From IMG/VR virus record IMGVR_UViG_3300020599_000008, positions 1 through 59,499 of that record: a stretch of DNA of 59,499 bases. The stretch is one strand, 5' to 3'. Position numbers and translations under genes: made by a program. This DNA is from a virus. Its lineage: Duplodnaviria > Caudoviricetes. The notes under the pieces were generated by a model. It saw only the letters and a program-made list of their open reading frames with translations, was not told the origin of the DNA and did no database searches. This document shows positions 40 through 58,791 of this stretch, one piece after another. Position 1 is the stretch's first letter; the number at the start of each line of letters is the position of its first letter.

Positions 40-64
40 CCGGGCGAGTAAGCGGCTCGCCCGG
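40..64 (+). promoter_or_regulatory. leader hairpin with TAAGCGG loop
   Basis: CCGGGCGAG-TAAGCGG-CTCGCCCGG followed by GAGAGAGGA SD. Confidence 0.75.
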
Positions 65-144
65 CTGCACCCCCGAGAGAGGAACACCCTTGAAACGCCT
101 ATCCCAGGCCCCGACGTCCAGACATATTGCGCTTCCCAATATTG

Positions 145-197
145 TTGACATGCTGTACGGGATACTGTATAATCGTGGTGTTGGGGTAAGCGGCCCC
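145..197 (+). promoter_or_regulatory. consensus sigma70 promoter plus TAAGCGG hairpin (copy 1)
   Basis: TTGACA(145-150)-17 bp-TATAAT(168-173); GGGG-TAAGCGG-CCCC at 183-197. Confidence 0.9.
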
Positions 198-227
198 GGC
201 GCAGGGCACACGAGAGAGGACAGCTCC

Positions 228-470
228 ATGTACCAGCACGATGAAACCGGTTATCAGGCGTTCCGCGAGATGATCGAGCTCGATCGCCACGCGAGCGGCA
301 CGTATGACGAGTACGGCGATCCGGACGGTCGCGAGCCGGGTGAGCCGATCTTCTGCGCCCACTGTGGCGGCGCGACCGGCGAGGTATATGACCCCGAGGC
401 CGACGGCCAGATTGACGTCTGCCCCACGTGCTACGACCGGATCATGTACCCGCAGTACGACTGGCGGTAG
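228..470 (+). CDS. small acidic Zn-ribbon protein
   Basis: GAGAGAGGA SD; CAHC...CPTC motifs. Confidence 0.75.
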   Translation: MYQHDETGYQAFREMIELDRHASGTYDEYGDPDGREPGEPIFCAHCGGATGEVYDPEADGQIDVCPTCYDRIMYPQYDWR

Positions 471-479
471 CGACAGGCG

Positions 480-505
480 ACCGGGCGGGAAGCGGCCCGC
501 CCGGT
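480..505 (+). promoter_or_regulatory. leader hairpin with AAGCGG loop
   Basis: ACCGGGCGGG-AAGCGG-CCCGCCCGGT then GAGAGAGGA SD. Confidence 0.75.
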
Positions 506-531
506 CCGACTTCCCGAGAGAGGACAGCACC

Positions 532-930
532 GTGGACACCATCACGTCGGAGATCCAGATCCATGCAGAACAACGTGACGGCATCGTCGGGATCGCGCGC
601 TCAGAACGGATACACGCGGAGATCATGGCTTCGGCATCGGCCAGCGCGATGCTCCGGACCCTCGGGAGCGCGATAGCCGACATGGAAGAGGCGCTGGCGT
701 CGCTCCGGCGATTCGTCGAGGACACCGAGAAGTCCCCGCAGGACATCGTGACCAACGAGGCGCTGCGCTGGGTCGTGTGGGATCTGCGCAATCGCGCGAT
801 CTCGCTCGACCACAAGCTCACGTCGACCGGCACGGAACTCGCGGTCCGCGACGCGATCGTGTCGCGTATGAGCGGGATTCTGGAGCGCGCGGGCATCGAT
901 CCCACGACCGGAAAGGCTCGGCAATCATGA
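532..930 (+). CDS. hypothetical helical protein
   Basis: GTG start after strong SD; stop overlaps next ATG. Confidence 0.7.
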   Translation: MDTITSEIQIHAEQRDGIVGIARSERIHAEIMASASASAMLRTLGSAIADMEEALASLRRFVEDTEKSPQDIVTNEALRWVVWDLRNRAISLDHKLTSTGTELAVRDAIVSRMSGILERAGIDPTTGKARQS

Positions 931-1259
931 GCCGCATTCCCGAGTACCAGCACGTTGAGACGGCAGACGGCCAGCGATACGCCGACTACCTCGCGAGCCC
1001 AGGGGGCAAGGCCGAGGTGCGGCTAATCAAGCTCATGCGGGCCCTGGAGGAGGCGCAGCAAACCATCGCGCGGCTGGAAACGGAACAGCCCCGCGCATAC
1101 GGGCAGGCGATATCCGCGTGGGGCAAGACGTTCGAGGAGGCCCCTGCCGACGTGATCCCCCGGATCGACAAGCGCATTGCCGAGGTACTGGACGAGATGG
1201 TGCGCGCCACGATGCGCCTACAGGAACGCCACGACCTGATCGTTACGGAATCGCTCTAG
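927..1259 (+). CDS. hypothetical protein
   Basis: ATGA overlap with previous gene; coiled-coil-like. Confidence 0.7.
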   Translation: MSRIPEYQHVETADGQRYADYLASPGGKAEVRLIKLMRALEEAQQTIARLETEQPRAYGQAISAWGKTFEEAPADVIPRIDKRIAEVLDEMVRATMRLQERHDLIVTESL

Positions 1260-1301
1260 GGTTCGCACAACGCCCGTCACGGGCCAGAAAGGGACACCAC
1301 C

Positions 1302-1793
1302 ATGTCAACCCGCGCAATCATCGCTCGCAAGACCCCAGACGGTTGGGAGGGCCGATATCATCACTTCGATGGGTATCCCTCGGGCCTCGGGGCCGCGTTG
1401 CACGAGATTGGCAACGAGGTGTTCGGCGGCGACATCGGGGCCATGATGACCACGCTGATCGACGATCATCCGGCGGGCTGGTCCAACATCCAGAATGTTG
1501 ACTGGACCCGTGAGCCAGGGTTCGGAGACCCGAAGGGCCCCGAGTGCTACTGCCACGGCCAGCGCCACGAAGGCCCGGACCTCCGGACCAGCGCCGGCGC
1601 GCCCGACTGTTTCGAGGAATACCTGTACGTCGTGGACGTGGACGCCCGGACCATCGCGGTCTACGCCACGCCATACCCGCACGAACGGGACGCGTTGCAT
1701 GTCGCGACCGTGCCGTTCGGGTGCTCCGCGGACTGGCGACAGATTGAGCACTGGGGTGATCACGTGGACGGAAGCCCGGTGGATCCCGACTGA
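1302..1793 (+). CDS. conserved phage hypothetical protein
   Basis: MSTR..I...YHHFDGYP..LG...EEYLY pattern common in phage early genes; SD present. Confidence 0.75.
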   Translation: MSTRAIIARKTPDGWEGRYHHFDGYPSGLGAALHEIGNEVFGGDIGAMMTTLIDDHPAGWSNIQNVDWTREPGFGDPKGPECYCHGQRHEGPDLRTSAGAPDCFEEYLYVVDVDARTIAVYATPYPHERDALHVATVPFGCSADWRQIEHWGDHVDGSPVDPD

Positions 1794-1800
1794 CAACCCT

Positions 1801-1826
1801 GGGATGGCGCATTCGTGCGCCATCTC
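1801..1826 (+). terminator. hairpin, possible terminator
   Basis: GATGGCGCA-TTCG-TGCGCCATC after the 1793 stop; weak U tail. Confidence 0.45.
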
Positions 1827-1847
1827 CTATCCCCCATCCTGATATTG

Positions 1848-1901
1848 TTGTCATGCTGTACGGGATATGGTACACTTATGTTGTCCCGGGGTAGCGGCCC
1901 C
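1848..1901 (+). promoter_or_regulatory. sigma70 promoter plus TAGCGG hairpin (copy 2)
   Basis: TTGTCA-17 bp-TACACT with the same spacer TGCTGTACGGGATA; GGGG-TAGCGG-CCCC. Confidence 0.8.
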
Positions 1902-1932
1902 GCGGCAGCGAACGACAGAGAGGACTCCCCCC

Positions 1933-2670
1933 ATGGCCAAGCGATTGATCCTGAAATACGCGGGCGAATGCGTAGCGTGTGGCGCTGAGCTTGACGCCGG
2001 GGCCGAGGCGATCTGGTGGTCACGTGGCCGGGTCTCGTGCCTCACGTGCGATGGGCGCATGAGTGAAGACGAGTACCAGGAGCGCCGGGATGCCAAGGTC
2101 GAGCGGTTCCAGGGGTACGCGGACAACGCTCGGGCCCGCAGTAACACGGCATTGGAAACCGCGAGTCAGATTGCCGACATGATCCCGGCGGGCCAGCCGA
2201 TCCTCGTGGGCCATCACTCCGAGGGGCACCACCGGCGCGACCTCGCGCGGATTGACCGCAACATGCGCCGGGGTATCGATGAGCACGACCGTGCGGAGCA
2301 CTGGGATCGCCGGGCCCGCGGGGCCGAGCACGACACCACGATCCACGCGGATGACCCGCTGGCCGTCGACAAGCTCCGGGACAAGATCGCGGAACTGGAA
2401 GCCCAGCGAGAGCGCATCAAGACGGTGAACCGGTTGGTCCGCAAGGCCGCGGGCAAGGACCCGAGCCGGGAGCACGCCGCTGAGATCATCGCCGCGCACC
2501 CCGACCTGACGGCACGCGAGCGCGCAACGCTCCTGAGCGACCTCACGATGTACCACGGGATCGTGCAGGTCGGGTATCCGGGGTATGTGCTGAGCAACCT
2601 CGGGGCGAACATCCGGCGCTATCAGCAGCGGCTCAAGGGACTGGAACGCCTGATCGCGACATTCGAGTAG
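1933..2670 (+). CDS. DUF3560 domain protein with N-terminal Zn finger
   Basis: IPAGQPILVGHHSEGHHRR signature; CxxC...CxxC N-terminus. Confidence 0.85.
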   Translation: MAKRLILKYAGECVACGAELDAGAEAIWWSRGRVSCLTCDGRMSEDEYQERRDAKVERFQGYADNARARSNTALETASQIADMIPAGQPILVGHHSEGHHRRDLARIDRNMRRGIDEHDRAEHWDRRARGAEHDTTIHADDPLAVDKLRDKIAELEAQRERIKTVNRLVRKAAGKDPSREHAAEIIAAHPDLTARERATLLSDLTMYHGIVQVGYPGYVLSNLGANIRRYQQRLKGLERLIATFE

Positions 2671-2722
2671 CCGCACGACCGCCGGGCCCCGAGGCATCCT
2701 CGGGGCCACTGGACAGGAGCAG

Positions 2723-2983
2723 ATGATGAGCATCCCGACGACCCAGGGCCCCACGTACATGGGGTGGCATGACCCGCGCAAGGGCGCGACTCCCACGAGC
2801 CTGACGGACGGCGCGGTTCGGCGCTTCGAGCGCAAGCACGGGCGTGGGCCCGCCGAGTTGGTGGCCCATCCCGACACGACGCTCGATCCCGAGGTCGCGT
2901 CCGGTGTCATGATCCGCACCAGCACCGACGTTCCACTCGGGGTCGTGTGGGTCGGGCCAATCGACAACGTAGCGCGGCATTAG
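2723..2983 (+). CDS. hypothetical protein
   Basis: AGGAG SD preceded by a hairpin. Confidence 0.65.
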   Translation: MMSIPTTQGPTYMGWHDPRKGATPTSLTDGAVRRFERKHGRGPAELVAHPDTTLDPEVASGVMIRTSTDVPLGVVWVGPIDNVARH

Positions 2984-3078
2984 CGCGCCTGAGACATAAA
3001 CGACGAAACGATGCACAATGACCGGCGTGGGTGCCGGGACTGACCGGCAAGGAGGCGGACACCGAAAGAGGCCGACAC

Positions 3079-3255
3079 ATGGGAGTCATGGATCGTGTAC
3101 GTGAGCAGGCCAAGCAGGACATGCTCCCGCGCGAGGGGCGAGACAAGTGGGACCCGCGGGGAGCCCAGCGGGTCATGTGCATCTGGTTTCCCATCATGGC
3201 CCTGGCGATGTGTGTCGTGATCGGTGTTATCAGCGCGATTGCGGGCATCGTGTAA
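3079..3255 (+). CDS. small membrane protein
   Basis: GAGG SD; C-terminal hydrophobic helix. Confidence 0.6.
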   Translation: MGVMDRVREQAKQDMLPREGRDKWDPRGAQRVMCIWFPIMALAMCVVIGVISAIAGIV

Positions 3256-3271
3256 CCCCAAGGAGAATCCC

Positions 3272-3640
3272 ATGACGATTGGCGAAGCGATTGATCGGGC
3301 GATAGCCTCAATCCGGCAGCGCGGCACAAGCGATGAGGTGCTGCTCGACGAGTTGGCGCGCGTCGCCCGGATAGCGTTCCAGCTCGGCAGCACCGCTGCG
3401 CTCGATACCCTGCTGAGTGCCCGCGACGTAGCCGAAGCCCTCGGGGTCTCGCACGACAGCGGCTACGTGGCCCGAATGGCCCGGAAGCACAACATCGGCG
3501 CGGTGATCGCGGGAACGCGGCTCTTCCGCCCCGAGGACCTGGACGAGCTCCGGGCCATCAAGGACGCGGCAGTGCCGGGACGGCGCAAGAGCCACTACCG
3601 CATAATCGACGGGCCCGCGCGACCGCGCGATGACCAGTAA
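3272..3640 (+). CDS. MerR/excisionase-like HTH DNA-binding protein
   Basis: LLSARDVAEALGVS...RLFRPEDL; AAGGAG SD. Confidence 0.75.
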   Translation: MTIGEAIDRAIASIRQRGTSDEVLLDELARVARIAFQLGSTAALDTLLSARDVAEALGVSHDSGYVARMARKHNIGAVIAGTRLFRPEDLDELRAIKDAAVPGRRKSHYRIIDGPARPRDDQ

Positions 3641-3660
3641 TGATCCCACGGGACAAGCAG

Positions 3661-3690
3661 ACGGCCAGCGGTTGTTACGCCGCTGGCCGT
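3661..3690. terminator. hairpin between convergent transcription units
   Basis: ACGGCCAGCGG-8 nt-CCGCTGGCCGT perfect 11-bp stem. Confidence 0.5.
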
Positions 3691-3779
3691 CGCTATGGGG
3701 ATGGGAGGCACACGCCGGGCGTTGACGCTGTACGCTGGTCGCCACTACGGTCAAGGACGACCATCGCCCACTGCAACCC

Positions 3780-4058
3780 CTATCCCCAGAGAATCAGATT
3801 GAACCCGTCGATCTCAGCCTGCGTGAGCCGGCGCGGATCTGCCGACAGCGCCCCGCTCAGTCGTATTTCCATCTGGCTCGCCCCCCGAGACTCCAACTCG
3901 GCCAGCACCTCACGGATGAGCCATTGATTGAGGCGCACGACCGTGTTGCTCGCCTTGCGGTTGCTCCCGAGGTCGATCCGGGGAACTGGTGCCGTCGCGC
4001 GGCCCGTCGCCGTGGTCATGATGTCGCCGGCTCCGACGAACGGAGCGTTGGTTCGCAC
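3780..4058 (-). CDS. hypothetical protein at end of late operon
   Basis: ORF coupled to the holin stop. Confidence 0.5.
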   Translation of the reverse strand: MRTNAPFVGAGDIMTTATGRATAPVPRIDLGSNRKASNTVVRLNQWLIREVLAELESRGASQMEIRLSGALSADPRRLTQAEIDGFNLILWG

Positions 4059-4441
4059 TAGTCGCCTCTCACAACCTTGCCGACTCCCACGGGCGAGTCG
4101 TCGGTCACGTCATCGACCACGAACTCGACCTGCTGGATCTCGTACACCGCCTTCTCGATCAGGGTCCGCCACTGCTCCTCCGTGAGGTTGATCCCGTGGG
4201 CTTCGGCGAGGTCGTAGGCCCTGCTCATCGCGTCGTTGAACTTCTGGCGCGCCTGCGCCCCGGTCCCCGGGGCCAACTGCTCGACCGCCTGGACCGCGAA
4301 TTCCGCGATCTGCCGGGCTTTCGTGAGCTGCGCGTCACTTACCTGTGTGCGCAGGTACGGGATCAGTGCCTTGGACACCACGGCCCCGAGGAGCCCCATC
4401 AGCGCAACCACGAGGGTCACGACCGCTTCCATGATGGTCAT
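4058..4441 (-). CDS. holin (LL-H-like)
   Basis: N-terminal TM helix, IAEFAVQAVEQL motif, adjacent to endolysin. Confidence 0.8.
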   Translation of the reverse strand: MTIMEAVVTLVVALMGLLGAVVSKALIPYLRTQVSDAQLTKARQIAEFAVQAVEQLAPGTGAQARQKFNDAMSRAYDLAEAHGINLTEEQWRTLIEKAVYEIQQVEFVVDDVTDDSPVGVGKVVRGD

Positions 4442-4457
4442 GTCGATCTCCTATGCT

Positions 4458-4485
4458 GCAAACCGATATCGGTTTGCCTAATAAC
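4458..4485. promoter_or_regulatory. 20-bp palindrome, member of a dispersed repeat
   Basis: GCAAACCGATATCGGTTTGC; near copies at 18378 and 51312. Confidence 0.6.
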
Positions 4486-4486
4486 C

Positions 4487-5971
4487 TCAGGCGCGAAGTT
4501 GCGCCAACTCGGCCTTGAGGGCCGCGAGTTCATCGCGTAGCGCCCGGTTCTCCAACCCGAGCAACCCGCGGGTAATCGAGCCGTCGGGCCAGTACTCGAT
4601 GCGCGCGCGCTCGAAGTCCTGGGCGATCAGCGCGGTGCCATCGGTCGAGGTTGACCCGTAGGCCCCGGAGGTCACGTAGCCCGTGTCCTCCCACGGACGC
4701 GCGTTGACGTGATTGACGAACACCCGCGGCACCCAGAACTTCCCGTGTGGCGATCCCCACGGATCCGGCACCGCATCCTCGGTGATGTCGCGTGGCACCG
4801 GCGCGGGCGCGGGCCCGAGTTGGCCGGCACGATACGGACGCACGAACGCGCTCATCAGGGTCCCGGGGCACGACGTTGCGCTGAGTTCCTGATGTCCCCA
4901 CACCTGCGAGCGCGCGCTACCGGACCACTGGATCCACGCGTCCACGACCTCCTGCAGGGCCTTGAGTTGCGCCGCGGTGGCCGACTGGCCGTCCCCGAGG
5001 GGCAACTGCACCGCGATGGCCGTGCGGTTCTGCGAGGCCCCGCAGTGCCACAGCACGCGCTCAAGGTCTCGCATCAGCCACTTGGTCCCGTCGCCGTCGA
5101 TCCCGATGTGGTACATGATGCCGCTGCCGTAGATCGGGGCTTCGCCGCCGGTCGCCCAGTTCTTGCCCACGTGGTACACGGCATCGGCCTGGAGCGAGCT
5201 GAGCCCCGCCCCGGGGTTCGTCACGACCCCGCGGTAATGCACCACGAGCCCACGCTTGTCCTTGAGCGCCACGGTCTCGTACGGCCCTCGTGGCACTCCG
5301 TCGTCCCCTGGCTGCTTGGTCGCGAGCATCGCGCGGGCGTCGCGCAGGCCGGGAATGATGTGATCGTATGGTGTCGCCATGGGCTCCTGCCCTTCCATGA
5401 TGTCGGCCAGTGCGTTGATCTGACCCGCGATGAATTCCGCGTACTGGCGCGGCTTGTTGCCGTCCCGGCTCGGGGCCCAGACGGCGACGACCTCGTAGAT
5501 CGAGACGGCCCCCGCGTTCTGGTAGTCAAACCCCGGTTCCTCGATCCGGTAGATCCCGTCCTGCACGGAATCCAGCACGTCGCGGTACTCGACGTACAGG
5601 GAATCTCGCACCGGATCCCTCACGCGCTTGGCCCTGTCCATGATCTCGGGGTCTCGAATCGACCGTGCGTTCGTGAGGCTCCGGGTATCCATGCGCCATA
5701 GCACGGAATCGCGGTTCATGCCCCACGTGTGCTCGCGCCCCGCGATCCCGAACCAGCGGGCCGGATCATGACCGCGCGCCACGATCAGGCGATAGAGCGC
5801 TCGCGCGGCTTCCTCGGGCGTGCTGAATCGGTCTTCCAGCCCGTTCCACAGCGGATGGGTCGCGGGGTTGAACCGATCGGGCAACGCGCCCTGCGCACGC
5901 CACGCCTCGATCCAGCGGTCTTCCGTGATGGTCGCGGTCGCTTTGAACGGGCTATCGATGGTTACGGCCAT
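4487..5971 (-). CDS. endolysin: lysozyme/glucosaminidase-like domain + Amidase_2 + C-terminal cell-wall motif
   Basis: LVVHY...YHIGI...WHCG...WGHQE..ATSCPG amidase motifs; QDFERARIEYWP..LLGLE C-terminus. Confidence 0.88.
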   Translation of the reverse strand: MAVTIDSPFKATATITEDRWIEAWRAQGALPDRFNPATHPLWNGLEDRFSTPEEAARALYRLIVARGHDPARWFGIAGREHTWGMNRDSVLWRMDTRSLTNARSIRDPEIMDRAKRVRDPVRDSLYVEYRDVLDSVQDGIYRIEEPGFDYQNAGAVSIYEVVAVWAPSRDGNKPRQYAEFIAGQINALADIMEGQEPMATPYDHIIPGLRDARAMLATKQPGDDGVPRGPYETVALKDKRGLVVHYRGVVTNPGAGLSSLQADAVYHVGKNWATGGEAPIYGSGIMYHIGIDGDGTKWLMRDLERVLWHCGASQNRTAIAVQLPLGDGQSATAAQLKALQEVVDAWIQWSGSARSQVWGHQELSATSCPGTLMSAFVRPYRAGQLGPAPAPVPRDITEDAVPDPWGSPHGKFWVPRVFVNHVNARPWEDTGYVTSGAYGSTSTDGTALIAQDFERARIEYWPDGSITRGLLGLENRALRDELAALKAELAQLRA

Positions 5972-6341
5972 GAGTCACGTCCCCTCGGATAATGCGATAT
6001 CGCCGACGGCCCCGAACCTCGGAGCGCCACCGGGCCCACATGACCACGCCGAACAGCATCGCCACGGTGATGAACCCCCGACCATTCAGCGGGGCGCTGG
6101 GTTGCGTGAACGCCACGATCCCGATGAGCGCGAGCACGAGCTTGACCAGCATCCAGTCGAACTCGTTGTCCGAGTCGTTGCGAAATAGCGCCAACGCGCC
6201 GGGCGACGACGGCAGGGCCCCGGCCTGCAACAGGTCAATGTCCCGGTCGATCTGGTGCCACAGTGCGGCATGGTGCCGTGCGCCCCACAGGCAGATCAGT
6301 ACCCATGCGATTTCGTGGATCCCGACCGTACTCGGTAGCAT
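5952..6341 (-). CDS. membrane protein (lysis region)
   Basis: Three hydrophobic segments. Confidence 0.65.
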   Translation of the reverse strand: MLPSTVGIHEIAWVLICLWGARHHAALWHQIDRDIDLLQAGALPSSPGALALFRNDSDNEFDWMLVKLVLALIGIVAFTQPSAPLNGRGFITVAMLFGVVMWARWRSEVRGRRRYRIIRGDVTHGRNHR

Positions 6342-6348
6342 GTTCCCC

Positions 6349-6582
6349 CTACCCCTCTGCTCGCCGTCGCCGGATCTCTTCCAGCCGAGGGAGGAGGTCT
6401 GCGCGCTCCTCATACGCCGACAACATCATCTCGAGATCATCGAGCCGTTCCTCACTCTGCTCGATGTACACGTCGATCGCGTTCCGATATGTGCGCTGCC
6501 GGTTGGCCCCCATGAGCCACCGCCAACAGCGCCCCAGCGTCGCGGTGATGGTCTGGACGACGCGACGCACGAACCCGATCAT
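6349..6582 (-). CDS. hypothetical protein
   Basis: ATG overlaps previous stop; coiled-coil C-terminus. Confidence 0.6.
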   Translation of the reverse strand: MIGFVRRVVQTITATLGRCWRWLMGANRQRTYRNAIDVYIEQSEERLDDLEMMLSAYEERADLLPRLEEIRRRRAEG

Positions 6583-6809
6583 CGATTCCGCTCCGCCGGG
6601 TGATCCACCGCCTCGATGATGTCGGTCATGCGCTCGCTCAGCGAGATCATGCGCTCGAACACAGCGGACAATTTCTCGTTGCGGTCGATCTCGCGCCGGT
6701 GCGTCCTGCCCGCCACGATGTCCTCGCGGATGAACAGGAACACGACCAGCAGCAGCGTGGCCCCGACCCCGCCCCCACCGACAACCGCCCACGCGTCGGC
6801 CAGCGTCAT
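6579..6809 (-). CDS. small membrane protein (lysis region)
   Basis: N-terminal TM helix followed by coiled coil. Confidence 0.65.
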   Translation of the reverse strand: MTLADAWAVVGGGGVGATLLLVVFLFIREDIVAGRTHRREIDRNEKLSAVFERMISLSERMTDIIEAVDHPAERNR

Positions 6810-6825
6810 GGAACGCGCTCACTCA

Positions 6826-7077
6826 TCACCCGCGATCCTCTACGGGGTCAAGCTCGTCCGCCGTGACGGCCACGACCTCCTGCATATCCAGCAGCACCAG
6901 TGAACGGGTCCGATCCTCCGGGGGCGTGAAATACAGGGTCGGGGGCGTAACCCCGCCGTCCGGGTTCGGGGTCGGGGGATCGGCGGTCGGCATCCCGACG
7001 GATTCGACCTGAACGACCTGCCCGTACCGCAGGTACAGCGACACCTTGAACCGGCGCTCATGATCCACGGGCAACAC
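6826..7077 (-). CDS. hypothetical protein
   Basis: In-operon ORF; start uncertain. Confidence 0.55.
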   Translation of the reverse strand: MLPVDHERRFKVSLYLRYGQVVQVESVGMPTADPPTPNPDGGVTPPTLYFTPPEDRTRSLVLLDMQEVVAVTADELDPVEDRG

Positions 7078-7453
7078 TCCCTTCCTTCTTGCCCTTTGTG
7101 GCCTCGGCGCGACGCTCCGCGGCCGCGCGTTCGGCCCTCAGGTCTGCCGCGGCCCGCGGACGCCCAGACCCGTCGGCCACGCGCGCGCGGCCCAGCAGCG
7201 CCTTGACGGGTGCGGGCGGGGGCGCGGGCGGGGTTGTCAGGCGCTCAACCTCGGGACGCCGGCGCTCAATCGCGTCGTCGATCATGGCCTCGGTGACCTG
7301 GGCGGTCGATATCGCGGGCAGGACCACCTGATCGACCAGGATCGCGGGCTGCTGGGGATTCTCCTCGGGGTCGCGCTCATACCACGTCATGTCGAGGATG
7401 ACGCCCGAATGGTTATCGGTATCGCGCAACTGCGTGGGGATGCAGAACAGCAT
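7058..7453 (-). CDS. hypothetical protein
   Basis: AAAGGGAG SD; follows tail tip gene. Confidence 0.65.
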   Translation of the reverse strand: MLFCIPTQLRDTDNHSGVILDMTWYERDPEENPQQPAILVDQVVLPAISTAQVTEAMIDDAIERRRPEVERLTTPPAPPPAPVKALLGRARVADGSGRPRAAADLRAERAAAERRAEATKGKKEGSVARGS

Positions 7454-7466
7454 GTGACTCCCTTTC

Positions 7467-10400
7467 CTATCCGACCGGCACGACACTCGTGATCGTCACG
7501 AGCGCCTGGACCGTGCACGTCACGTCCATCAGTTGTGCCGACGTGATCTCGATGTTGTTGGTCTGGCGCAGGGGTTGACCCTGGCCGTCCACCAGATACG
7601 GCGTAATGTCGACCATGAAATCGTTGTCCCACGGACCCCCGAGCGCCGCGGTGCGGTCGGTCCCGTTGATCGAGACCCGCATCTGGGGCTCCGTGGGATT
7701 TGGGCCCCGGAACACCCCGTAGACCAGCGCGTGGGTGTGGTCCTGGATCTCGTGGTCGTGGGGGTTGACCGCGTGGGTATGGAGCGGCAACGTATGGCTA
7801 TGCTCGCCCCCGGCCACCGCGGTCTGGCCCGACACCGTGTGGGTGTGGTTCAGGATCCCGTGGGTGTGGAGGTTCTCGCTCTGGGTCGCGACACCCGTGA
7901 TTGCGTGCTCGTGGGCTTGGGTCTGCTGGGTCGTGAGCGCTCCACTGGCCCCCTCGGTGCCGTTGCGCCCCACGTAGAACCCGTAGTTGGGACCCGTCTG
8001 GGGCCCTGTATTCATGACGATCTGCTGCAGATAGCCGGGATCGGCCCACGGGGTGGTCTGCTGGTACTGCCCGATAATGTGGAAATGCAGGCCGCCCGGC
8101 TGCGTGGTCGCGCCCGTCACCGAGTGGGTGTGGGGTGAGCCGCCCTGCGACGTGTGGCCCCCGCCCGCCGGTGTCACGGCGGTCGAGATTGCGTGCGAGT
8201 GCTGGCCCGCGGCATTGGCCGTGACGCCACCGCCGCCCTGCACCACCACGACGGTCGAGCTTGAGGTCTGGCCCCCGCCCGCCGCCGCGCCCTTGACGTT
8301 GCTCTTGACCCGCGACTTCCGTACCTGCATCTCGGCACGGTGCAGGTACGTGATGGTGTCGTTGATCCACACGGGGAACCGGGCGCTTTCGCCCACGTCG
8401 ACGCTTTCGGTATAGGGCCCGAACGGCATGTTGATCGGGAACGGGCGCTTGGCCGTCTGGATGGCCCACAGGTCTTCCAGGGCCTTGGCCACGATGTCGG
8501 CGTCATCCGGGGTTTCGCGGTCCACGGTCGAAACCGTCAGGGACCAGCGATCCACCCCGTCCTCGTCGAACTCTCGCTTATACCCGAGGATCCAGACGTC
8601 GGTGTCGATGTCGCGCCACACCCGCGTGCCATGGGGCAGGGCCACGGCCCCGCGGTACCGGAGCCGCGCGGTGTCGCCGGTCCGGAGCTGCACCTGACCG
8701 CCCACGATATGCCGGAGTCCCACGACATCGACCTTGTAGGACTCCTGCGCGGTCCCGTGCCACCCGAGCCACGCGGCAGCCACGTCGTACAGGGCGTTGG
8801 CGGCGTTGCGGATCTCCGCCGGGCTGTTGGACAGCGGCACCAGATCCTTGGCGATCAGGGCACGCTCGCGCGGCCCGTGGGTCACGATGCTGTCGCCCCA
8901 CTCGATGTACCAGTACGGGTTGCCCGCGCGATCCGTGCCCTGGTGGATCGGGTATGGACTCGTGCGGTCGCTATATTGCAGCGTCAGGGCCGAGATACCC
9001 TCGCCGCCGCCCAGCGGGACCACGCGGTTCCAGAGCTCGTCCTGCTGGGTCGTGATGGTCAGGTGGACAATCGGCTGTACCGCCATGTCACCAGTCGGGT
9101 TGACGTACTGGACGTTACTGAGCACGAGTCCCGAATCCGCGCCCATAGGTCCGATCTCGACCTGTCGCGTGAGATTGCGTTCCCGGATGTGCCAGCCGAA
9201 CATTTCGGCCGCATGGGCCATCGCCTGCCACGCCGACGCCCCGGTGTACTGCGCCGTGACGTTGCGGGGGTCCGGCGCGACGCTGAACGCGCCCCACGCG
9301 GTCCCGACGAGCAGGTCATCCACGACGTCGGGCATAGGGACGTTGGCGTACTCGGTCCCAACCAGCGTGTTGACCCACACGAGCTCCTGAGCCAACGACG
9401 ATCCCGAAACCGTCGCGATCATCTGTCCATCGGGCGTCACAACGGTTTCGACCGGCCCCACGACCCCCCGGAACACCAGGCCCTCGCCCGCGCGATGGAG
9501 ATTGATACGAGTCCCGTCAACCACCTGATCGAGCGCCGGATCGTACGCCGGGACCGCGATCTCGAACGCCCCGATGCCGTCGAGCGCGGCGTCATACCAG
9601 CCCCCGAGGATCGTGAGCAGTGGCCCGCCGTCCAGCGGGTTGCCCGCGGGATCGAACAGATCGGCCCGGAGCCCAGCGCCCCCGACCGTCGCGTACTCCA
9701 TGAGCGTGGCCTCAACGGTCGCGCGGCCCTGTATCCCCACGGTGATGTCAGCGCGGAACGACACCTCGGCCTCGACGGTCGCGGCGCTCGTGATCCCGAC
9801 CACGATTTCGGGCACCACCGCGGCCCGTGCCTCGACGGTCGCGCCGGAGTCGATGTTCACGACGAAACCTGCGGGCACCGTGATGCCGGAGCCGACGGTC
9901 GCGACACCTGCAATATCCACGTCAATCAGGCGCGTTGCACTGACCCTGGCATCCACCGTGGCCCACGTGTTGACCTCGACCTCGATCATGGCCGCGGGGA
10001 GCAGCCGGGCGCTGACCCATCCGGCCCCGTAGATCGTGGCTTCGATGCCCGCCGGAGCCGTTGCCCGTGCCTCGACGGACACGCTACCCGCGATCCCGAC
10101 CGTGATCTCCGTCGTGACCGTGACATCGACCTGCACGGTGGCCGCGCCCGCGATTCCTGTCGTGATGAGCCGTGACGCCGTGACGGATGCCGCGACCGTG
10201 GAGCTACCCGCGATGCTCGGCTCGATCTCCTGCGGGACCTGCAACAACGCCTCGACCGTGGTGCTGGTGTCGTGCCAGTTGCCCGCGCCGTCGCGCGTGC
10301 GGATGTAGCGTGTGTTGTTGCCGTTGACGATTCCACTGTCGGTCAGCAGGGACGTCGATATGGGCGTGCCACTCGTGCAACTGATCGGCCCGATCAGTTT

Positions 10401-11396: not shown

Positions 11397-11461
11397 GTTG
11401 TCCTGCCTGCCAGCCTTATCGTGTCAGTAGCGGAGAACCAGCGCCCCGCTCCTGCGTGCTA

Positions 11462-11866: not shown

Positions 11867-11875
11867 GGTGTTCTC

Positions 11876-18351: not shown

Positions 18352-18421
18352 GCCGCAGCCTCACTATTCAGATGCAGGATATCGGTTTGGCCGATAGCGC
18401 GGGGCACAGAGAACCGCCCAA

Positions 18422-47137: not shown

Positions 47138-47464
47138 CTACACTCCTCGGCGAGCTGCAGAACGCGCCGAGCCCACGTACTCCGGCAGGCACCTGCCCAC
47201 CAGCACCCGCGCGGCGTCCTCAGCGGTATCAAACGTCTGCTCGTTGTTGAGTGGCGGCATCGTGGCGCTCGAGGGACCACGGCATACCCACCCTCGGGCA
47301 CCCCAGTCCACGACGTGCCCGAGGACACGGCCCAGCGCCAAAACCTCGACGATCATGTGGGGCCACTGGACGTTGCCGAATGGCCGGATGTTGCTGCCGG
47401 TCGACACATCGGTCAGCGTGGTGTTGACCACGATGTTGTCGAGCTCGACCGCGATGGTCATCAT
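47138..47464 (-). CDS. hypothetical protein
   Basis: Coupled to MTase stop. Confidence 0.6.
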   Translation of the reverse strand: MMTIAVELDNIVVNTTLTDVSTGSNIRPFGNVQWPHMIVEVLALGRVLGHVVDWGARGWVCRGPSSATMPPLNNEQTFDTAEDAARVLVGRCLPEYVGSARSAARRGV

Positions 47465-48381
47465 CCTGCTGCCTCCTCTCGCACTTCCACCTGATTGAGC
47501 AGCGGGGCATCGCCCGCGATCCTGCGCCGCGCCATCGCGGCATAGTCGGGGTTCAGCTCGATCCCGAGGAACCGCCGCCCGTGTCGTAGCGCCACAACCC
47601 CGACGGTGCCGGAACCCGCGAACGGATCCAGCACAACATCACCCTCGCGCGAACCCGCGAGCACGCAGGGCTCGACCAGGGCTTCGGGAAACGTTGCGAA
47701 ATGGACCGTTGGGACGCGTTGCGGCGCAACGGTCCAGACCGATCGCTTGTTGGCCCCGTGGGCCATCTGCTCGGCCCGGGGCATCGCGTCCCAACGGTCC
47801 GCGAACCCATCGTGCCGGCGCGCGTGACCGCGCTGCCGTTCGGCTCGGCCCTGCCGGTGGAATCGGCCATGTGGGCCAGCATCGGTGTCCCAGCCGGTCG
47901 GGACGCGCAGCGGGGCCGTAGACCGCGCGGGCTCACGGATCGCGGCGGCGTCGTACCGGTAGTGGCGCTGCCGGGCCAGCAGGAACAGATACTCGTGGGC
48001 CGTGGTGCAGCGATCCTGCACACTCTGGGGCATCGGGTTGGGCTTCGCCCAGATGATGTCCTGCCGGAGTATCCAGCCATCTGCCTGTAGCGCGAACGCG
48101 ACACGCCACGGAATCCCCAGCAGGTTCTTGTCCGGCGCGTAGGCATCGCCGAGATTCAGCCACACGACACCATCGGGCCGCAGAACCCGCGCAACCTCGC
48201 GAAACACCGCGACCTGCCCCGCGATGTACTGGTCGAGCGTCGGCTCAAGGCCCATCTGGCCGGAAACGCCGTAGTCTCGGAGTTGCCAGTAGGGCGGCGA
48301 CGTGATGCAGCACTGAACCGACGCATCCTCGACGCCCTGTAGCACGTCGCGCACATCTCCGACGCGGATTTCGGCACTCAT
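47461..48381 (-). CDS. DNA methyltransferase, N4/N6 (beta class)
   Basis: TSPPYW, WAKPNPMP, HFATFP, VLDPFAGSGT, GIELN. Confidence 0.93.
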   Translation of the reverse strand: MSAEIRVGDVRDVLQGVEDASVQCCITSPPYWQLRDYGVSGQMGLEPTLDQYIAGQVAVFREVARVLRPDGVVWLNLGDAYAPDKNLLGIPWRVAFALQADGWILRQDIIWAKPNPMPQSVQDRCTTAHEYLFLLARQRHYRYDAAAIREPARSTAPLRVPTGWDTDAGPHGRFHRQGRAERQRGHARRHDGFADRWDAMPRAEQMAHGANKRSVWTVAPQRVPTVHFATFPEALVEPCVLAGSREGDVVLDPFAGSGTVGVVALRHGRRFLGIELNPDYAAMARRRIAGDAPLLNQVEVREEAAG

Positions 48382-53214: not shown

Positions 53215-53305
53215 GGGGCAGGGAGCCGCTTACTCCGCTGCCCCTTCTTCATGCCGTGTGTCTATTGGGAATCATAATATCATGATTTACGATATTACGC
53301 TCCGC
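53215..53305 (-). promoter_or_regulatory. AT-rich promoter region plus TAAGCGG hairpin for replication genes
   Basis: GGGGCAGCGGAG-TAAGCGG-CTCCCTGCCCC then GAGAGAGG SD. Confidence 0.7.
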
Positions 53306-54827: not shown

Positions 54828-55253
54828 CTATGCCTCACTTTCGGGCGCGAGATACGTGTCGCGCATGTCCTGATCGGCCTGCTTGAGTGCCGCGAGCACC
54901 GCGTCCTGATCGTCGCCCCGGACCGTGATGCTCCACCCGTAGCCGCCGCGCTGGCCCCGATCCAGGTTCACACGAACTCGTGGCTCAGTCGTGCCATGAA
55001 TGGTTCCGCTGGTTGTCTCGTTCATCTGTGCCTCATCCTCTAGCGGGCCCGTCCCCATGGGCACGGGCTTCATGGGTCGTGGAGCCGTCGCGAGAAGCCG
55101 GTCCACAACCTCGGGAGTGTAGAGCGCGTGCGGGGTCGGGCCATCGGGCAGCGCGGTCCCGACCGTGTGGAGCAGGTGTGCGTGCTTCCAGCACAGCGCC
55201 TCGCCCATGTCCTCAATCGCGAGCTCGCACCCCGGCACCCGACATGTCCCCAT
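54828..55253 (-). CDS. hypothetical protein
   Basis: N-terminal C..C...C..H; may be two genes. Confidence 0.55.
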   Translation of the reverse strand: MGTCRVPGCELAIEDMGEALCWKHAHLLHTVGTALPDGPTPHALYTPEVVDRLLATAPRPMKPVPMGTGPLEDEAQMNETTSGTIHGTTEPRVRVNLDRGQRGGYGWSITVRGDDQDAVLAALKQADQDMRDTYLAPESEA

Positions 55254-55432
55254 CACAGCATTCCCCCGATCCATAGTCCCAATATCCCCATCCCCAGAAT
55301 CAGCAGTCCGCCCACGATTCCGGCCAGCAGGTCCACGGCAAAGCGCGTGAGCCGTGGACCCACGACCGGAGCGCGCTGCACCTCTGGCCGGCGTGACGGC
55401 GCGATATAGCGGCGCGGACGCTCAGTGATCAC
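55253..55432 (-). CDS. small membrane protein
   Basis: C-terminal TM helix; coupled. Confidence 0.55.
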   Translation of the reverse strand: MITERPRRYIAPSRRPEVQRAPVVGPRLTRFAVDLLAGIVGGLLILGMGILGLWIGGML

Positions 55433-55869
55433 GGCGTCACCTGCGTGCCACATGAGCACGCCTCATCCACCTGCGCGAGGAACTTCCCCAGCGCCGCCAG
55501 ATTCGTGACGCTGGTGGATGAGCAGCACCCGCACGGAAGACACATCGTGACGTTGAATGCGCGGGAATACTGGTCCCGATCGCTCGCGAGAGCGCGCAGG
55601 TTGTCGGTCTGGAATCGAGACTGAAACAGGATGCCCTCGACCATGGTGAAGGCCGAAACGACATCATGCTTAGGCCACTCGTTGTCCACGTCCACGACCG
55701 AGAGCTTGACGCCGAACAGGCGCTCCATCCCTCGGCAAAACAGCACCGACGCGCTCTCTTCCGCGACCAGGAGTGCTTCGCGCCGCTCCGCCGCTTCACG
55801 CCGCTGTTTGTCGGCAAGGGCTTCTGCCGCTCTAGCACGTAGTGACATGGTTGCCGTGGGGTAATCCAT
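55429..55869 (-). CDS. hypothetical protein
   Basis: Hairpin plus GAGAGGA SD. Confidence 0.7.
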   Translation of the reverse strand: MDYPTATMSLRARAAEALADKQRREAAERREALLVAEESASVLFCRGMERLFGVKLSVVDVDNEWPKHDVVSAFTMVEGILFQSRFQTDNLRALASDRDQYSRAFNVTMCLPCGCCSSTSVTNLAALGKFLAQVDEACSCGTQVTP

Positions 55870-55898: not shown

Positions 55899-56195
55899 CT
55901 AACGCTCGCCTCGGTGCTCCGCTAAGAACCGGGCGATCTCATCAGGCGTGTACAGAATCGTTTGCCCGTAGTGGAACGGTCGTAGCACCCCTTCCTTGCG
56001 CCACCGCCGCAGGGTCGAGACATCAACCCCGAGCCAGTCAGCAGCCTCATCGGTCGTGAGTGGTCGGTCCGGCAGCCACGCGGGCACCTGCTCGACAATC
56101 CGCGCCGCCACCGCCGCGGCGATGCGCTCAATCACGGCGTCGGGGAGGTCCAGCGATAGCGCAACCTGCCCGACCGCAGGGATCTGCTCAACCAT
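55899..56195 (-). CDS. excisionase-like HTH protein
   Basis: LTTDEAADWLGVDVSTLRRWRKEG. Confidence 0.8.
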   Translation of the reverse strand: MVEQIPAVGQVALSLDLPDAVIERIAAAVAARIVEQVPAWLPDRPLTTDEAADWLGVDVSTLRRWRKEGVLRPFHYGQTILYTPDEIARFLAEHRGER

Positions 56196-56355
56196 CGCCC
56201 CGCTCAATCCGCCGCAGGTACGCATCAAGCGCCTCGCGGACGACACGCGAGCGGTTGGTATCCCGCCGCGCCGCAACAATGCGATCAAGTGCCTCGATGT
56301 GCCGGGGATACAGCGAGAGCGAAACGTTCTCCGCGTACTCCCGCTCCTGCGTCAT
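56188..56355 (-). CDS. ribbon-helix-helix regulator (55 aa, not in ORF track)
   Basis: VSLSLYPRHIEALDRIVAARRDTNRSRVVREALDAYL; GGAGG SD. Confidence 0.8.
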   Translation of the reverse strand: MTQEREYAENVSLSLYPRHIEALDRIVAARRDTNRSRVVREALDAYLRRIERGDG

Positions 56356-56377
56356 CTCGACCTCCCTTCACGGATGT

Positions 56378-56472
56378 GGGTATCCAATATCCTGATATCT
56401 AATATTACTACAATCTAATACCACTTGGCAAGCATCTCGAATACCCTGATATCAGGTATCGCGATATTAGAG
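56378..56472. promoter_or_regulatory. immunity switch region with operator-like repeats
   Basis: AT-rich; palindrome CCTGATATCAGG and several GATAT/AATAT units between divergent regulators. Confidence 0.7.
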
Positions 56473-56521
56473 GTTCGCATCGAGCGGGTCCCGCGGTGCC
56501 GTCGAGAGAGAGGCGCTGGCA

Positions 56522-57220
56522 GTGAGCACCAAAGTGGGCCAGTTGATTCGGAATCGACGCCGTGAGCTGCAGTTGACACAGGAGGGGCTCGAGGAATTGG
56601 CACAGGTGAGCCAGACCTATATCAGCATGTTGGAGACGGGGCAAATCACGCGGCCCGAGATCGAGACATTGCGGCTATTCGCTGACTCACTGAACATCCC
56701 GATGAGGGACTTGATGATTGCGGCTGGTTGGCTCCAGATCGAGCCAGTGGTCGTGACCGAGGATGCGGTTGAGGTCGCAGTTCTGGGTGATGTCCCGGGG
56801 CCCGTGCCCTCGACTAGCGAAACTGAAGGCGGCGATGCAGTGATCCGGGTACTGCCCGAGATGATCGGGAGAGCGAACGAACCGTTTGCCCTGCGCGCAA
56901 CTGATAACGAGTGGATGCAGCGCGGCATTGTGGCGGGCAATTACGTGCTATGCGAGACATTCGACGATCAGGACGGGGCCCACGAGCCCGAGGTCGGGCA
57001 ACTGGTCGCGGTCGAGATAGACCGCGAGATCGTGCGGCTCGTCACATGGTCGCGTGAGGGCGATGCCGCGGTGCTGGACGGTGGTCAGGGGGTTGGCGAG
57101 GTGCTGCGGTCCCGCGCGTGGGCCCGGCGTGTCCGCGTCCTCGGGACCTACATCTATCATCTGGCCCCGCCGCCGGCGTCGCTCCTGGAACTCGCGACCA
57201 CCGCGCCCGAGAGCCGGTGA
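56522..57220 (+). CDS. CI-like repressor (XRE HTH + degenerate S24-like domain)
   Basis: LTQEGL..LAQVSQTYISMLETG; VAVLG.VPG, FALRA; the canonical GDSM serine motif is not evident. Confidence 0.85.
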   Translation: MSTKVGQLIRNRRRELQLTQEGLEELAQVSQTYISMLETGQITRPEIETLRLFADSLNIPMRDLMIAAGWLQIEPVVVTEDAVEVAVLGDVPGPVPSTSETEGGDAVIRVLPEMIGRANEPFALRATDNEWMQRGIVAGNYVLCETFDDQDGAHEPEVGQLVAVEIDREIVRLVTWSREGDAAVLDGGQGVGEVLRSRAWARRVRVLGTYIYHLAPPPASLLELATTAPESR

Positions 57221-57224
57221 CGCG

Positions 57225-58415
57225 GTGGTGAAGCCGAAGAAGAAGCCGGAGAAGCGCACCAGCATCCACGCGGGCGTCTACCCGAGCGGCGCGACCCACT
57301 GGCAGTACAAGCTCCGGTTACCGCGCCAACCCGACGGTACCCGGCCCATGGAAACCCGCGGGGGATTCCCGACCGACCAAGCGGCCCACGAGGCCCGGGT
57401 GCGCCGCCTGGTCCAGATCTACGATGGCATCGCGGTGGAGCCGGGTGACGAGACGGTCGAGCAGTACCTGCGGGCCTGGCTGAAACTGCGGGCTGACCAC
57501 GTGCGCCCGTCGACCGACTATAACTACCGCCGTACCGCGGAGCTGTTCATCTACCCGTACATCGGCGACATCCGCGTCCGGGCCCTGCGGGCCGATCACG
57601 TCGAGGCGTGGTTGCGAAGGTTACGCCACGAACATCTCAACGAGAAGACGGGCAGACGGGGGCTGGCCACATCGAGCATGAGGATGGCCCGGAGCATTCT
57701 GGTCGCAGGGCTCAACCACGCGGTGACGGTCCGGCGCATCCTGCCGTTCAACCCGGCGGCCAGCGTCGAGATCCCCCAGGGGGAGCCCACGGGCCGCGTG
57801 CTGGCGTGGACCGAGGATGAGCTGGCCCGCGTGCTCCCGTTCATCGATAAGGATCGCCACGCACTCATCTGGTACCTCGGGCTCTTCCTGCAGATGCGCC
57901 CCGGCGAGATTCTGGCGCTCACGCGCGACGACGTGGATCTCGCGCGTGGCGAGATCGCGGTCCGGCGCACCATTGCGCGCACCGCCTCGGGGCGCTTCGT
58001 GGTGTCGAACATGACGAAGCGCGAGTCCAGCGCGCGTACAATCCCCATGACGCGACGGATCCAGGAGTTGATGCGCGAGCATCTGGATCAACAGGATATC
58101 ATCGCGGCCAGCCGCGAGCGCGCGCGCGAGTGGAACATCCAACGGCTCGTCTTCCCCTCGTCCCGCACCGGATCGATCCGGGGGCACGCGTGGATGCGTG
58201 GATGCCTCGCGACGCTGTGCACGGCCGCCGAGGTGTCGCGTATCTCGCCCCACGGCCTGCGTCACACCGGCGCGACGTGGCTGATTCGTCGGGGCGTGTC
58301 AGCCGCGGTCGTGAGCCAGCGCCTCGGTCACTCGTCCGTGGCGTTCACGTTATCGCGGTACGTGCATCCCGATATGGGGGACCAGCGGACGGCGGGCGAG
58401 ATACTGGAATCGTAA
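57225..58415 (+). CDS. int: tyrosine integrase
   Basis: MRPGEILAL, HGLRHT.AT, RLGHS...T..RYVH catalytic residues. Confidence 0.95.
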   Translation: MVKPKKKPEKRTSIHAGVYPSGATHWQYKLRLPRQPDGTRPMETRGGFPTDQAAHEARVRRLVQIYDGIAVEPGDETVEQYLRAWLKLRADHVRPSTDYNYRRTAELFIYPYIGDIRVRALRADHVEAWLRRLRHEHLNEKTGRRGLATSSMRMARSILVAGLNHAVTVRRILPFNPAASVEIPQGEPTGRVLAWTEDELARVLPFIDKDRHALIWYLGLFLQMRPGEILALTRDDVDLARGEIAVRRTIARTASGRFVVSNMTKRESSARTIPMTRRIQELMREHLDQQDIIAASRERAREWNIQRLVFPSSRTGSIRGHAWMRGCLATLCTAAEVSRISPHGLRHTGATWLIRRGVSAAVVSQRLGHSSVAFTLSRYVHPDMGDQRTAGEILES

Positions 58416-58420
58416 GGGTT

Positions 58421-58721
58421 GTTCTACGGTTTGTTCCGCCGAATAACTATCAACGGCGCTTTTCCGCATGTGGACGCGGAATCTGCAAATCCGATTACTA
58501 TTTGCAGTATAGCGGGGCTTGTCCTGCAACGCCACCTATCAGCGGGCAACGAGCATGGGGTTTGAGCGCCCACATGCGGAAATCGACCCCGATGACCACG
58601 GTTCCCGTAGACCACGGCCCTGCACCCCAGGGCCGTGGTGTTCTACCGGGTGTTCCGTGGCGCTGCGCCACGTTCCCCGAGCTCACGCGCCCCGCCTGTT
58701 CTACGGGATGTTCTGCCGAAT
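58421..58721. other. attP-like region
   Basis: 24-bp direct repeats (58421, 58698), 17-bp inverted repeats (58461, 58566) and a central palindrome, directly after int. Confidence 0.65.
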
Positions 58722-58734
58722 TGCTGGAATATCA

Positions 58735-58791
58735 TTGACATGCTATACGTGATACTGTACAATCTAGTCATTGAGGTAAGCGGCCTCGATG
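58735..58791 (+). promoter_or_regulatory. sigma70 promoter plus TAAGCGG hairpin (copy 4)
   Basis: TTGACA-17-TACAAT; CATTGAGG-TAAGCGG-CCTCGATG. Confidence 0.85.

Follow-up and report, generated by a model that had tools for sequence, protein, structure and literature searches.

Why should a phage genome repeat one small loop, on stems of differing sequence, in front of its genes? The question is raised by IMG/VR virus record IMGVR_UViG_3300020599_000008 (Duplodnaviria; Caudoviricetes; 59,499 bases; CheckV completeness 97%; G+C 65.6%), the whole of which was analysed and is referred to here as the window. A sequence-only reading of this DNA had drawn attention to eight hairpins with the loop TAAGCGG, AAGCGG or TAGCGG, together with one variant, and had taken them for a protein-recognised RNA element that defines an early regulon. 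We find good evidence that these hairpins are a real, non-random RNA structure of the sense strand that is under selection; they keep a set position relative to the ribosome-binding site and, in four cases, to the predicted 5′ end of a transcript. That they make up a functional family of RNA hairpins is, in our estimation, highly probable.

A family of hairpins

The nine hairpins (A to H, with V for the variant) are given below, together with their scores in a covariance model of the kind that the sequence-only reading had proposed, which was built from five of the sites (A, B, E, F and H), with C, D, G and V held out.

Hairpin A, 40-64, plus strand: 9-bp stem CCGGGCGAG, loop TAAGCGG; 32.6 bits
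Hairpin B, 178-202 (core 183-197), plus strand: core GGGG/CCCC with a G-U-containing extension, loop TAAGCGG; 36.5 bits
Hairpin C, 479-506, plus strand: 11-bp stem, loop AAGCGG; 22.3 bits, rank 6 (held out)
Hairpin D, helix 1885-1905 (core 1888-1901), plus strand: loop TAGCGG, one bulged C; 17.9 bits, rank 7 (held out)
Hairpin E, 33330-33354 (core 33335-33349 in the sequence-only reading), plus strand: duplicate of B with one stem change, T-G to T-A; 37.8 bits
Variant V, 34275-34300, plus strand: 10-11-bp stem like that of C, loop TAGCAG; 12.8 bits, rank 11 (held out)
Hairpin G, 46777-46798, minus strand: stem GCGGAAG, loop AAGCGG, ahead of gene 46748-46203; 14.0 bits, rank 9 (held out)
Hairpin H, 53215-53244, minus strand: inner stem GGAG, outer stem GGGGCAG, one bulged C, loop TAAGCGG; 31.2 bits
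Hairpin F, 58769-58791, plus strand: stem CATTGAGG, loop TAAGCGG; 34.5 bits

A scan of both strands for the pattern G-[TAAGCGG/AAGCGG/TAGCGG]-C with at least four contiguous pairs returned eight sites, identical to the eight first noticed, with the variant likewise lying where it had been reported; 500 dinucleotide-preserving shuffles gave a mean of 0.41 sites (standard deviation 0.64, maximum 4). When the closing G-C pair was no longer demanded, the scan found 10 sites in the 59.5 kb of the window, as against 35 in 1.21 Mb of unrelated, prophage-like loci that encode relatives of the large terminase (TerL), where the hairpins are weak and none is accompanied by a Shine-Dalgarno (SD) sequence. 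The word AAGCGG occurs 19 times in the window; seven of these copies are hairpin loops, and an eighth (33570) abuts another intergenic hairpin. All eight hairpins proved to be intergenic and on the sense strand, as had been claimed, according to gene calls that were made heuristically for this analysis and are supported by scans against PHROGs (81 proteins) and Pfam (53 proteins).

The covariance model recovered all four held-out sites within the window. Its highest score outside the window was 18.1 bits, in 1.37 Mb of DNA from other phages and prophages and leaving out one locus that had been fetched by exact word; hairpin C stands clear of this background, and D and G are recognisable by their context only. 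V is probably a diverged member of the family.

Two other structures were considered as members and rejected. Gene 33617-34264 contains a perfect 10-bp hairpin (33721-33745) with an AGCGG loop closed by a C-G pair, which the covariance model did not pick up, and the leader of the repressor-like gene (56478-56500) gave a z-score of 0.01.

A fixed loop on free stems

Because MAFFT placed the one-base length difference between the loops at the ends of the sequences, pairs were counted with a script of our own that was anchored on the apex, using the seven non-duplicate sites; B and E are near-identical duplicates, so the eight sites are not independent. All seven, without exception, have AGCGG and the same closing G-C pair, with UA, A or U on the 5′ side of the loop. 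Stem pairs 2 to 4, by contrast, alternate between GC, AT and CG while remaining Watson-Crick in 21 of 21 cells, which bears out the earlier description of a constant loop on stems that differ and still pair. Outer stem pairs include G-U, and D and H each have a single bulge.

Three paralogous groups can be told apart among the sites. The first, A and C and probably V, is found directly after stop codons and has stems that are long and GC-rich (CCGGGCG.G); B, D, E and F form a second group; and G and H, both on the minus strand, have GCAGCGGA(A)G in common on the 5′ arm. Within groups we observed matched double changes (GAG/CTC in A versus GGG/CCC in C, and GGGG/CCCC in B versus GAGG/CCTC in F), whereas between groups the stems are unrelated, with about half of their positions differing, and the apex is identical. 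The presence of the same apex on unrelated stems is our main argument for selection on the loop itself. In addition, G-T pairs contribute to the extended helices of B and E, which appeared on the plus strand only; since G-U pairs confine these helices to the sense strand, they point to RNA.

When the nine leaders were folded with ViennaRNA, each showed its hairpin in the minimum-energy and in the centroid structure alike, with predicted apexes of AAGCG, AGCG or AAGCGG. Only A, H and V have a whole-leader energy that stands out, with at most one of 200 shuffles folding as well (none for A; none for H, at a z-score of -4.2). Three further ideas about the structure were dropped: a pseudoknot between the loop and downstream sequence and a 3′ arm acting as an anti-SD switch (which F alone fits), both on inspection and without a formal test, and a loop of complementary sequence at another place in the genome, the reverse word being found only antisense to the sites themselves and once within a gene.

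Placement at the ribosome-binding site

The sequence-only reading had put the hairpins roughly 10-25 nt before an SD, and the spacing turned out to be tighter than this: the 3′ end of the helix lies 10-12 nt from an AGAGAGG-type SD in seven of the eight sites and 19 nt from it in F. The distance from loop to SD is 19-23 nt in seven of the eight, and from SD to start codon 5-10 nt. In F and H, ViennaRNA predicts another small hairpin whose loop presents the SD. GAGAGG serves this phage as its general SD and is not a private signal of the hairpin genes; it has 24 copies in the window, most of which, by our reading of the listed contexts, stand directly before a start codon, with or without a hairpin. 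The longer GAGAGAGG has six copies in the window, five of them after hairpins.

Several sites are internal to series of genes. Hairpin C begins 9 nt past the stop codon of gene 228-470 and is followed by an SD (517-523) and a GTG (532), while V follows the stop codon of gene 33617-34264 and has an SD, GAAAGGA, and an ATG (34323) downstream. Hairpin A lies downstream of gene 59225-59458 across the poly-C junction of the record's ends and is followed by an SD (76-82) and a TTG (90), with no convincing gene before promoter P1 (listed below); this hairpin could be what is left of a module. Hairpin H and its SD are followed directly by a reading frame of 22 codons (53189-53121, minus strand, GTG start), whose TGA overlaps the ATG of gene 53124-52777 (ATGA), an arrangement that suggests translational coupling to this next gene.

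A cassette of promoter, hairpin and Shine-Dalgarno sequence

Hairpins B, D, E and F sit in four copies of a cassette of about 100 bp, made up of a promoter, the hairpin and an SD. The promoters, scored by their matches to the 12 consensus positions, are as follows.

Promoter P1, 145-173, plus strand: TTGACA, 17 nt, TATAAT; 12/12
Promoter P2, 1848-1876, plus strand: TTGTCA, 17 nt, TACACT, with TG before the -10 box; 9/12
Promoter P3, 33297-33325, plus strand: TTGACA, 17 nt, TATAAT; 12/12
Promoter P4, 58735-58763, plus strand: TTGACA, 17 nt, TACAAT; 11/12

These are the four best sigma-70-type promoters of the genome. Homology between the four blocks begins at about -50, takes in a conserved 17-nt spacer as well as the hairpin and SD, and ends at the start codon. 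The -10 boxes end at 173, 1876, 33325 and 58763 and the helices begin at 178, 1885, 33330 and 58769, that is, 5-9 nt further on; as this is the usual distance to a transcription start, the transcript would begin at the foot of the hairpin. The proposal that most of the hairpins follow a promoter holds strictly for these four sites of the eight: G has only a weak promoter-like site (9/12) about 55 nt upstream, H has none by the promoter scan, and A and C come after stop codons.

The small genes headed by the cassettes encode a zinc-ribbon-like protein of 80 residues, a DUF3560 protein (gene 1933-2670, with hairpin D between it and P2), a protein of 61 residues (hairpin E lies between P3 and gene 33380-33565) and a SWIM-finger protein (gene 58827-59171, with hairpin F between it and P4), and their function is unassigned. 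Three of the cassettes lie in the stretch that runs from the probable attachment region, just past the integrase gene, across the ends of the record; the fourth heads a plus-strand island amid minus-strand virion genes. In such positions, the four cassettes look accessory as much as early.

No T-run follows any of the hairpins, and a terminator scan reported none of the eight canonical sites. Its single match at a family member is V, on the opposite strand, and canonical T-run terminators are rarer in the window than in shuffles. A second class of strong intergenic hairpins was noted after stop codons, at 1801-1826, 2685-2707, 3660-3691, 33574-33599, 35404-35440 and 59179-59203. Their loops are unrelated (TTCG, CAT, TGTTAC, TTCAC, TAG and AGAAC), a T-run is present at 35404-35440 only, and they may be transcript-end or stop structures.

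Relatives, strains and other genomes

In a search of the whole window against Rfam, only the two tRNA genes reached gathering score. At E-values of up to 5, searches of 1-2000 and 33250-34350 gave few matches, among them weak ones overlapping hairpin C, at 12-23 bits as compared with gathering scores of 35-70. No Rfam family matches the hairpins, in keeping with the initial impression that they are not a described motif, and we found no report in the literature of a phage leader hairpin with a conserved loop beyond the analogues cited below.

A DNA search of cultured phages with positions 1-20000 returned no match, and the closest cultured phages by protein are distant actinophages, with at most 34% identity for a ParB-like protein and at most 26% for the capsid. 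For TerL, the highest identity of a relative is 45% in viral contigs (12 loci) and, over the best segment, 58% in genomes (80 loci kept out of 577), and none of the TerL-relative loci shares more than two of the 81 window proteins. For the genes beside hairpins D and H, no relative was found in viral contigs or genomes, and one, at 30% identity, in metagenome contigs. The promoter word had no match, and the cassette had no significant one among cultured phages. Judged by such comparisons, the phage is isolated in the collections searched, with nothing closer than about 45-58% TerL identity.

The motif itself was sought more widely. There are 54 viral stretches with GTAAGCGGC followed by GAGAGAGG, and a stem of at least five pairs is present in none of them (0/54); the exact 15-mer of hairpin B matched eight stretches. 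One of the eight, in an unrelated 33-kb viral record, has 22 nt identical to hairpin B (locus L020, 2470-2600; 14100-14230 of record G001); this stretch lies amid two pieces resembling tRNA 3′ halves, upstream of a DNA methylase gene, where ARAGORN and Rfam find nothing, and the match is probably due to chance. In five genomes of 5-8 Mb that contain TerL relatives, the apex 9-mer is not enriched (20-58 copies each, fewer than a reversed control word in four of the five); the phage has five copies in its 59.5 kb. The apex-plus-SD pattern occurs 0-3 times per genome, the same as its control, in 401 Chloroflexota genomes, a set that includes two unpublished ones (G350 and G044), on which alone no claim rests. 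The motif did not emerge as a common host signal in the genomes searched, which is no proof for the true host.

Near-identical strains were present in public runs X3, X4, X6 and X10, with no substitutions in hairpins A to D, the four examined; one run has a one-base deletion at 204, just past helix B. In the X4 contig, 115 other letters replace 1343-1930, a segment that holds most of gene 1302-1793, P2 and hairpin D, and the sequence rejoins 2 nt before the start of gene 1933. The X3 contig has a promoter-hairpin-SD block (corresponding to 144-223, with 11 differences and one gap) ahead of a gene that is absent from the window. Low or absent coverage of 1365-1860 in the runs was not counted as evidence.

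A proposed reader of the loop

Stem-loops at the 5′ terminus of bacterial and phage mRNAs, such as the stabiliser of the ompA leader, shield messages from 5′-end-dependent decay. Given this known behaviour, protection and insulation of the initiation region is the most economical role for the stem. The explanation that we favour, while holding it at somewhat less than even confidence in its full form, is that the hairpin gives structure and protection to the ribosome-binding region at its 5′ edge and that its loop is read by a trans-acting factor, which sets translation or lifetime of the message. Each hairpin would stand at the 5′ edge of a translation-initiation region, in the order helix, about 10 nt, AGAGAGG SD, 7-10 nt and start codon. 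RNAs made from the cassettes would carry a 5′-terminal stem-loop, to the detriment of 5′-end-dependent decay, and the remaining copies, which are found in longer leaders or past stop codons, would mark the edge of the ribosome-binding region in like manner. The invariant apex, G-(U)(A)AGCGG-C, would most likely be the docking site of one trans-acting factor, encoded by the phage or by the host, and this factor would set the translation or the lifetime of eight or nine messages jointly. The structure, its placement and the constraint on its loop are what the sequence shows; the transcript starts, action at the level of RNA, the existence of a reader and the direction of its effect are what we infer.

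Several points weigh against this explanation. All of the covariation comes from paralogues in one genome that fall into three groups, and the only other holders of the hairpins are near-identical strains, in which the hairpin sequence is stable and no covariation is added. The energy of the whole leader is unexceptional for D (z +0.8; 155 of 200 shuffles fold as well or better) and for B, E and G (z about -1.3), the sequence being GC-rich, and the covariance scores of D (17.9 bits) and G (14.0 bits) do not exceed the background maximum of 18.1 bits, which comes from 23 times more DNA. The proposed start of the cassette transcripts at the foot of the hairpin derives from promoter geometry, and the public runs consist of contigs, which show no RNA ends. 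A passive stabiliser would need no fixed loop; in stabilisers of the ompA type any loop will do, and sites A, C and V, unlike these, are internal to operons. Only the conservation of the loop would speak for a reader, and no RNA-binding, N-like, Q-like or NusG-like protein was detected with PHROGs or Pfam among the proteins scanned. Two small basic proteins (44132-44299 and 55253-55453, both on the minus strand) were considered as readers and set aside: nothing supports either, and nothing links them to RNA.

A broader proposal, which we regard as distinctly more doubtful, is that the AGCGG-capped hairpin is an address tag on mRNA read by an undescribed RNA-binding factor, and that similar tags with a fixed loop on a free stem, using other loop words, exist in many unrelated phages. 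If this were true, phages would commonly mark subsets of their mRNAs so that a loop-reading protein could control the translation or decay of the whole subset together, a class of post-transcriptional regulon new to the literature, and such a design, if general among phages, would add a layer of regulation beside repressors and antiterminators. Most unassigned phage genes sit in small cassettes whose control is poorly understood, and a short RNA tag on eight or nine messages would offer a handle on them. The proposal predicts a single reader, which could be caught with the hairpin as bait. The cassette, for its part, would be a compact and portable unit of promoter, leader hairpin and ribosome site for high-GC hosts.

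Known elements and alternative explanations

Three alternatives were ranked below a leader hairpin whose loop is read. The first of them, which we consider unlikely but the best of the three, is a mobile linker of promoter, stem-loop and SD that would insulate gene cassettes, attenuate read-through from upstream and offer homology for recombination; its loops would be alike by descent or gene conversion, and no factor would read them. Its model is the PeSL (promoter-early stem-loop) cassette of T4-type phages (RB49/phi1, PST/T4 and nt-1/KVP40; PMC2839356, PMC4122927), which is the closest known kind of element to the one described here. In the published accounts, PeSLs combine strong sigma-70-type promoters with G-run/C-run stem-loops and an SD at the 3′ end, and one such stem-loop terminated transcription in a reporter (PMC2839356). 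Going by those accounts, the likeness extends to a repeated intergenic block of near-consensus sigma-70-type promoter, G-run/C-run stem-loop and 3′ SD (found here at four of eight sites, B, D, E and F), to a location ahead of genes of unassigned function and to one published subclass in which the stem-loop lies just past the -10 box. They also describe cassette borders that coincide with insertion and deletion differences between close strains, of which we have only two events. Both of these fit a linker: the right junction of the X4 replacement, 2 nt before gene 1933, is the 3′ end of the cassette, and the X3 contig has the block ahead of a gene foreign to the window. The homology of the four copies over about 100 bp, which stops at the start codon ahead of unassigned genes, fits it as well.

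Several points count against a linker of this sort. The conserved part of published PeSLs is, as described, the stem composition (G-run, loop, C-run) and not the loop (PMC4122927). Here it is the other way round, a constant loop on stems that vary; an AGCGG unchanged on between-group stems that differ at about half of their positions is not what neutral descent predicts. Half of the sites here are without a promoter. No promoter block accompanies A, C, G, H or V, although the apex is complete in the first four of these and one base off in V. No T-run or other terminator feature is present, and the hairpins lie inside the cassette's own transcript, where an efficient terminator would stop its own message. 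The phage, moreover, is not a T4-type myovirus but a temperate one with an integrase and a tape-measure gene.

A second point of comparison is provided by the start-associated sequences (SAS) of Cluster K mycobacteriophages and their extended form (ESAS), located at the ribosome-binding sites of non-structural genes (PMC3203893). Like the hairpins, these are a phage-private repeated ribosome-binding-site signal in one orientation, and about half of the SAS copies are described as having an upstream inverted repeat; according to the same account, the motif was not in host genomes, and a role in translation was suspected (PMC3203893). The arms of the ESAS are reported to be conserved in sequence, with differences that break pairing, and its authors favoured a DNA-binding protein (PMC3203893). 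Here, in contrast, the arms vary and still pair, the spacer, which is the loop, is conserved, and the SD is a general one where the reported private box has 13 bp.

The boxB element of phage lambda is a hairpin capped by a purine-rich pentaloop with a GNRA-like fold, and boxA lies a few nucleotides 5′ of it. The second alternative, which the sequence-only reading had raised in its boxB/nut form, is recruitment of a processive antiterminator of the lambda nut boxB/N or LoaP type, after which polymerase would read through the GC-rich intercistronic hairpins downstream; we hold this to be improbable. The sites do lie just past promoters (B, D, E and F) or between cistrons (A, C and V), as nutL and nutR do, and the strong intercistronic hairpins at 1801-1826, 2685-2707, 33574-33599 and 59179-59203, with their unrelated loops, could be the stop signals. 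As reported for LoaP, a NusG paralogue, one small leader hairpin can suffice to recruit an elongation factor (PMC12691694), and both systems, as far as that source describes LoaP, resemble ours in having a small hairpin that lies in a leader or separates early cistrons, with an apex recognised by a protein, as is proposed here. The loop here, however, is neither a GNRA-type pentaloop nor a UNCG tetraloop, it differs in type from that of the LoaP hairpin, and no boxA-like sequence was found near any site: two boxA-type motifs, searched with mismatches allowed, gave 14 and 22 matches in the window, at or near chance, and no match adjoins a hairpin on the strand of that hairpin. PHROGs and Pfam detected no protein of the N-like, Q-like or NusG/KOW kind, and hence no cognate partner. 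The hairpins are also many more in number, and eight or nine sites in 59 kb, each tied to an SD and most at a fixed 10-12 nt, suit control of translation over control of elongation. The rarity of canonical T-run terminators also speaks against this alternative.

A site read in DNA, where one strand would form a hairpin or cruciform whose tip is recognised by a recombinase, primase or other DNA enzyme, as in integron attC or REP, is very improbable: variable stems with conserved unpaired bases also mark structure-read DNA sites, and strains differ by insertions and deletions at cassette borders, but orientation follows transcription at all eight sites, on both strands, the spacing to the SD is fixed, G-T pairs weaken the complementary-strand hairpin of B and E, and the PHROGs and Pfam scans detected no integron-type integrase or Y1 (HUH) transposase, the sole recombinase found being an ordinary tyrosine integrase.

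Other features of the phage genome

From the gene calls and their PHROGs and Pfam matches, the window represents a temperate tailed phage. Its recognisable genes include the following, with holin and endolysin genes likewise on the minus strand.

Tape-measure gene, 12721-18351, minus strand
Major capsid gene, 22659-23732, minus strand
Large terminase (TerL) gene, 28843-30324, minus strand
HTH_17 gene, 55899-56288, divergent from the HTH_3 gene
HTH_3 repressor-like gene, 56522-57220, plus strand, upstream of the integrase gene
Tyrosine integrase gene, 57063-58415, plus strand

The record begins and ends in poly-C tracts (1-35 and 59459-59499). In the X4 contig the last coding bases (about 59436-59462) run directly into the poly-C tract at the start of the window, and since this contig bridges the two ends, they are contiguous in the phage, the record having been cut at a homopolymer; the genome is circular or permuted. 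Genes 31638-32465, 41544-42296 and 47461-48345, all on the minus strand, comprise one matching a queuine tRNA-ribosyltransferase (PHROGs) or a Tet/JBP 2OG-Fe oxygenase (Pfam) and two DNA methyltransferases, a combination that suggests modification of phage DNA by the phage itself.

Between the integrase gene and promoter P4, at 58416-58735, are direct repeats of the type TGTTCTACGG / TGTTCCGCCGAA, which resemble the arm-type sites that an integrase binds in an attachment region. AT-rich, operator-like palindromes occupy 56370-56470 between the divergent HTH genes, for example CCTGATATCAGG at 56446-56457, and words related to them (GATACTGATATC and ATGATATTATGAT) occur upstream of hairpins G and H (46800-46850 and 53270-53300, minus strand). 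A further word, GGGATACTG, is found in the spacers of promoters P1 to P4 and recurs, inverted, upstream of hairpin G. The palindromes and words common to the HTH region, G, H and P1 to P4 suggest that a single DNA-binding regulator may act over all of these units.

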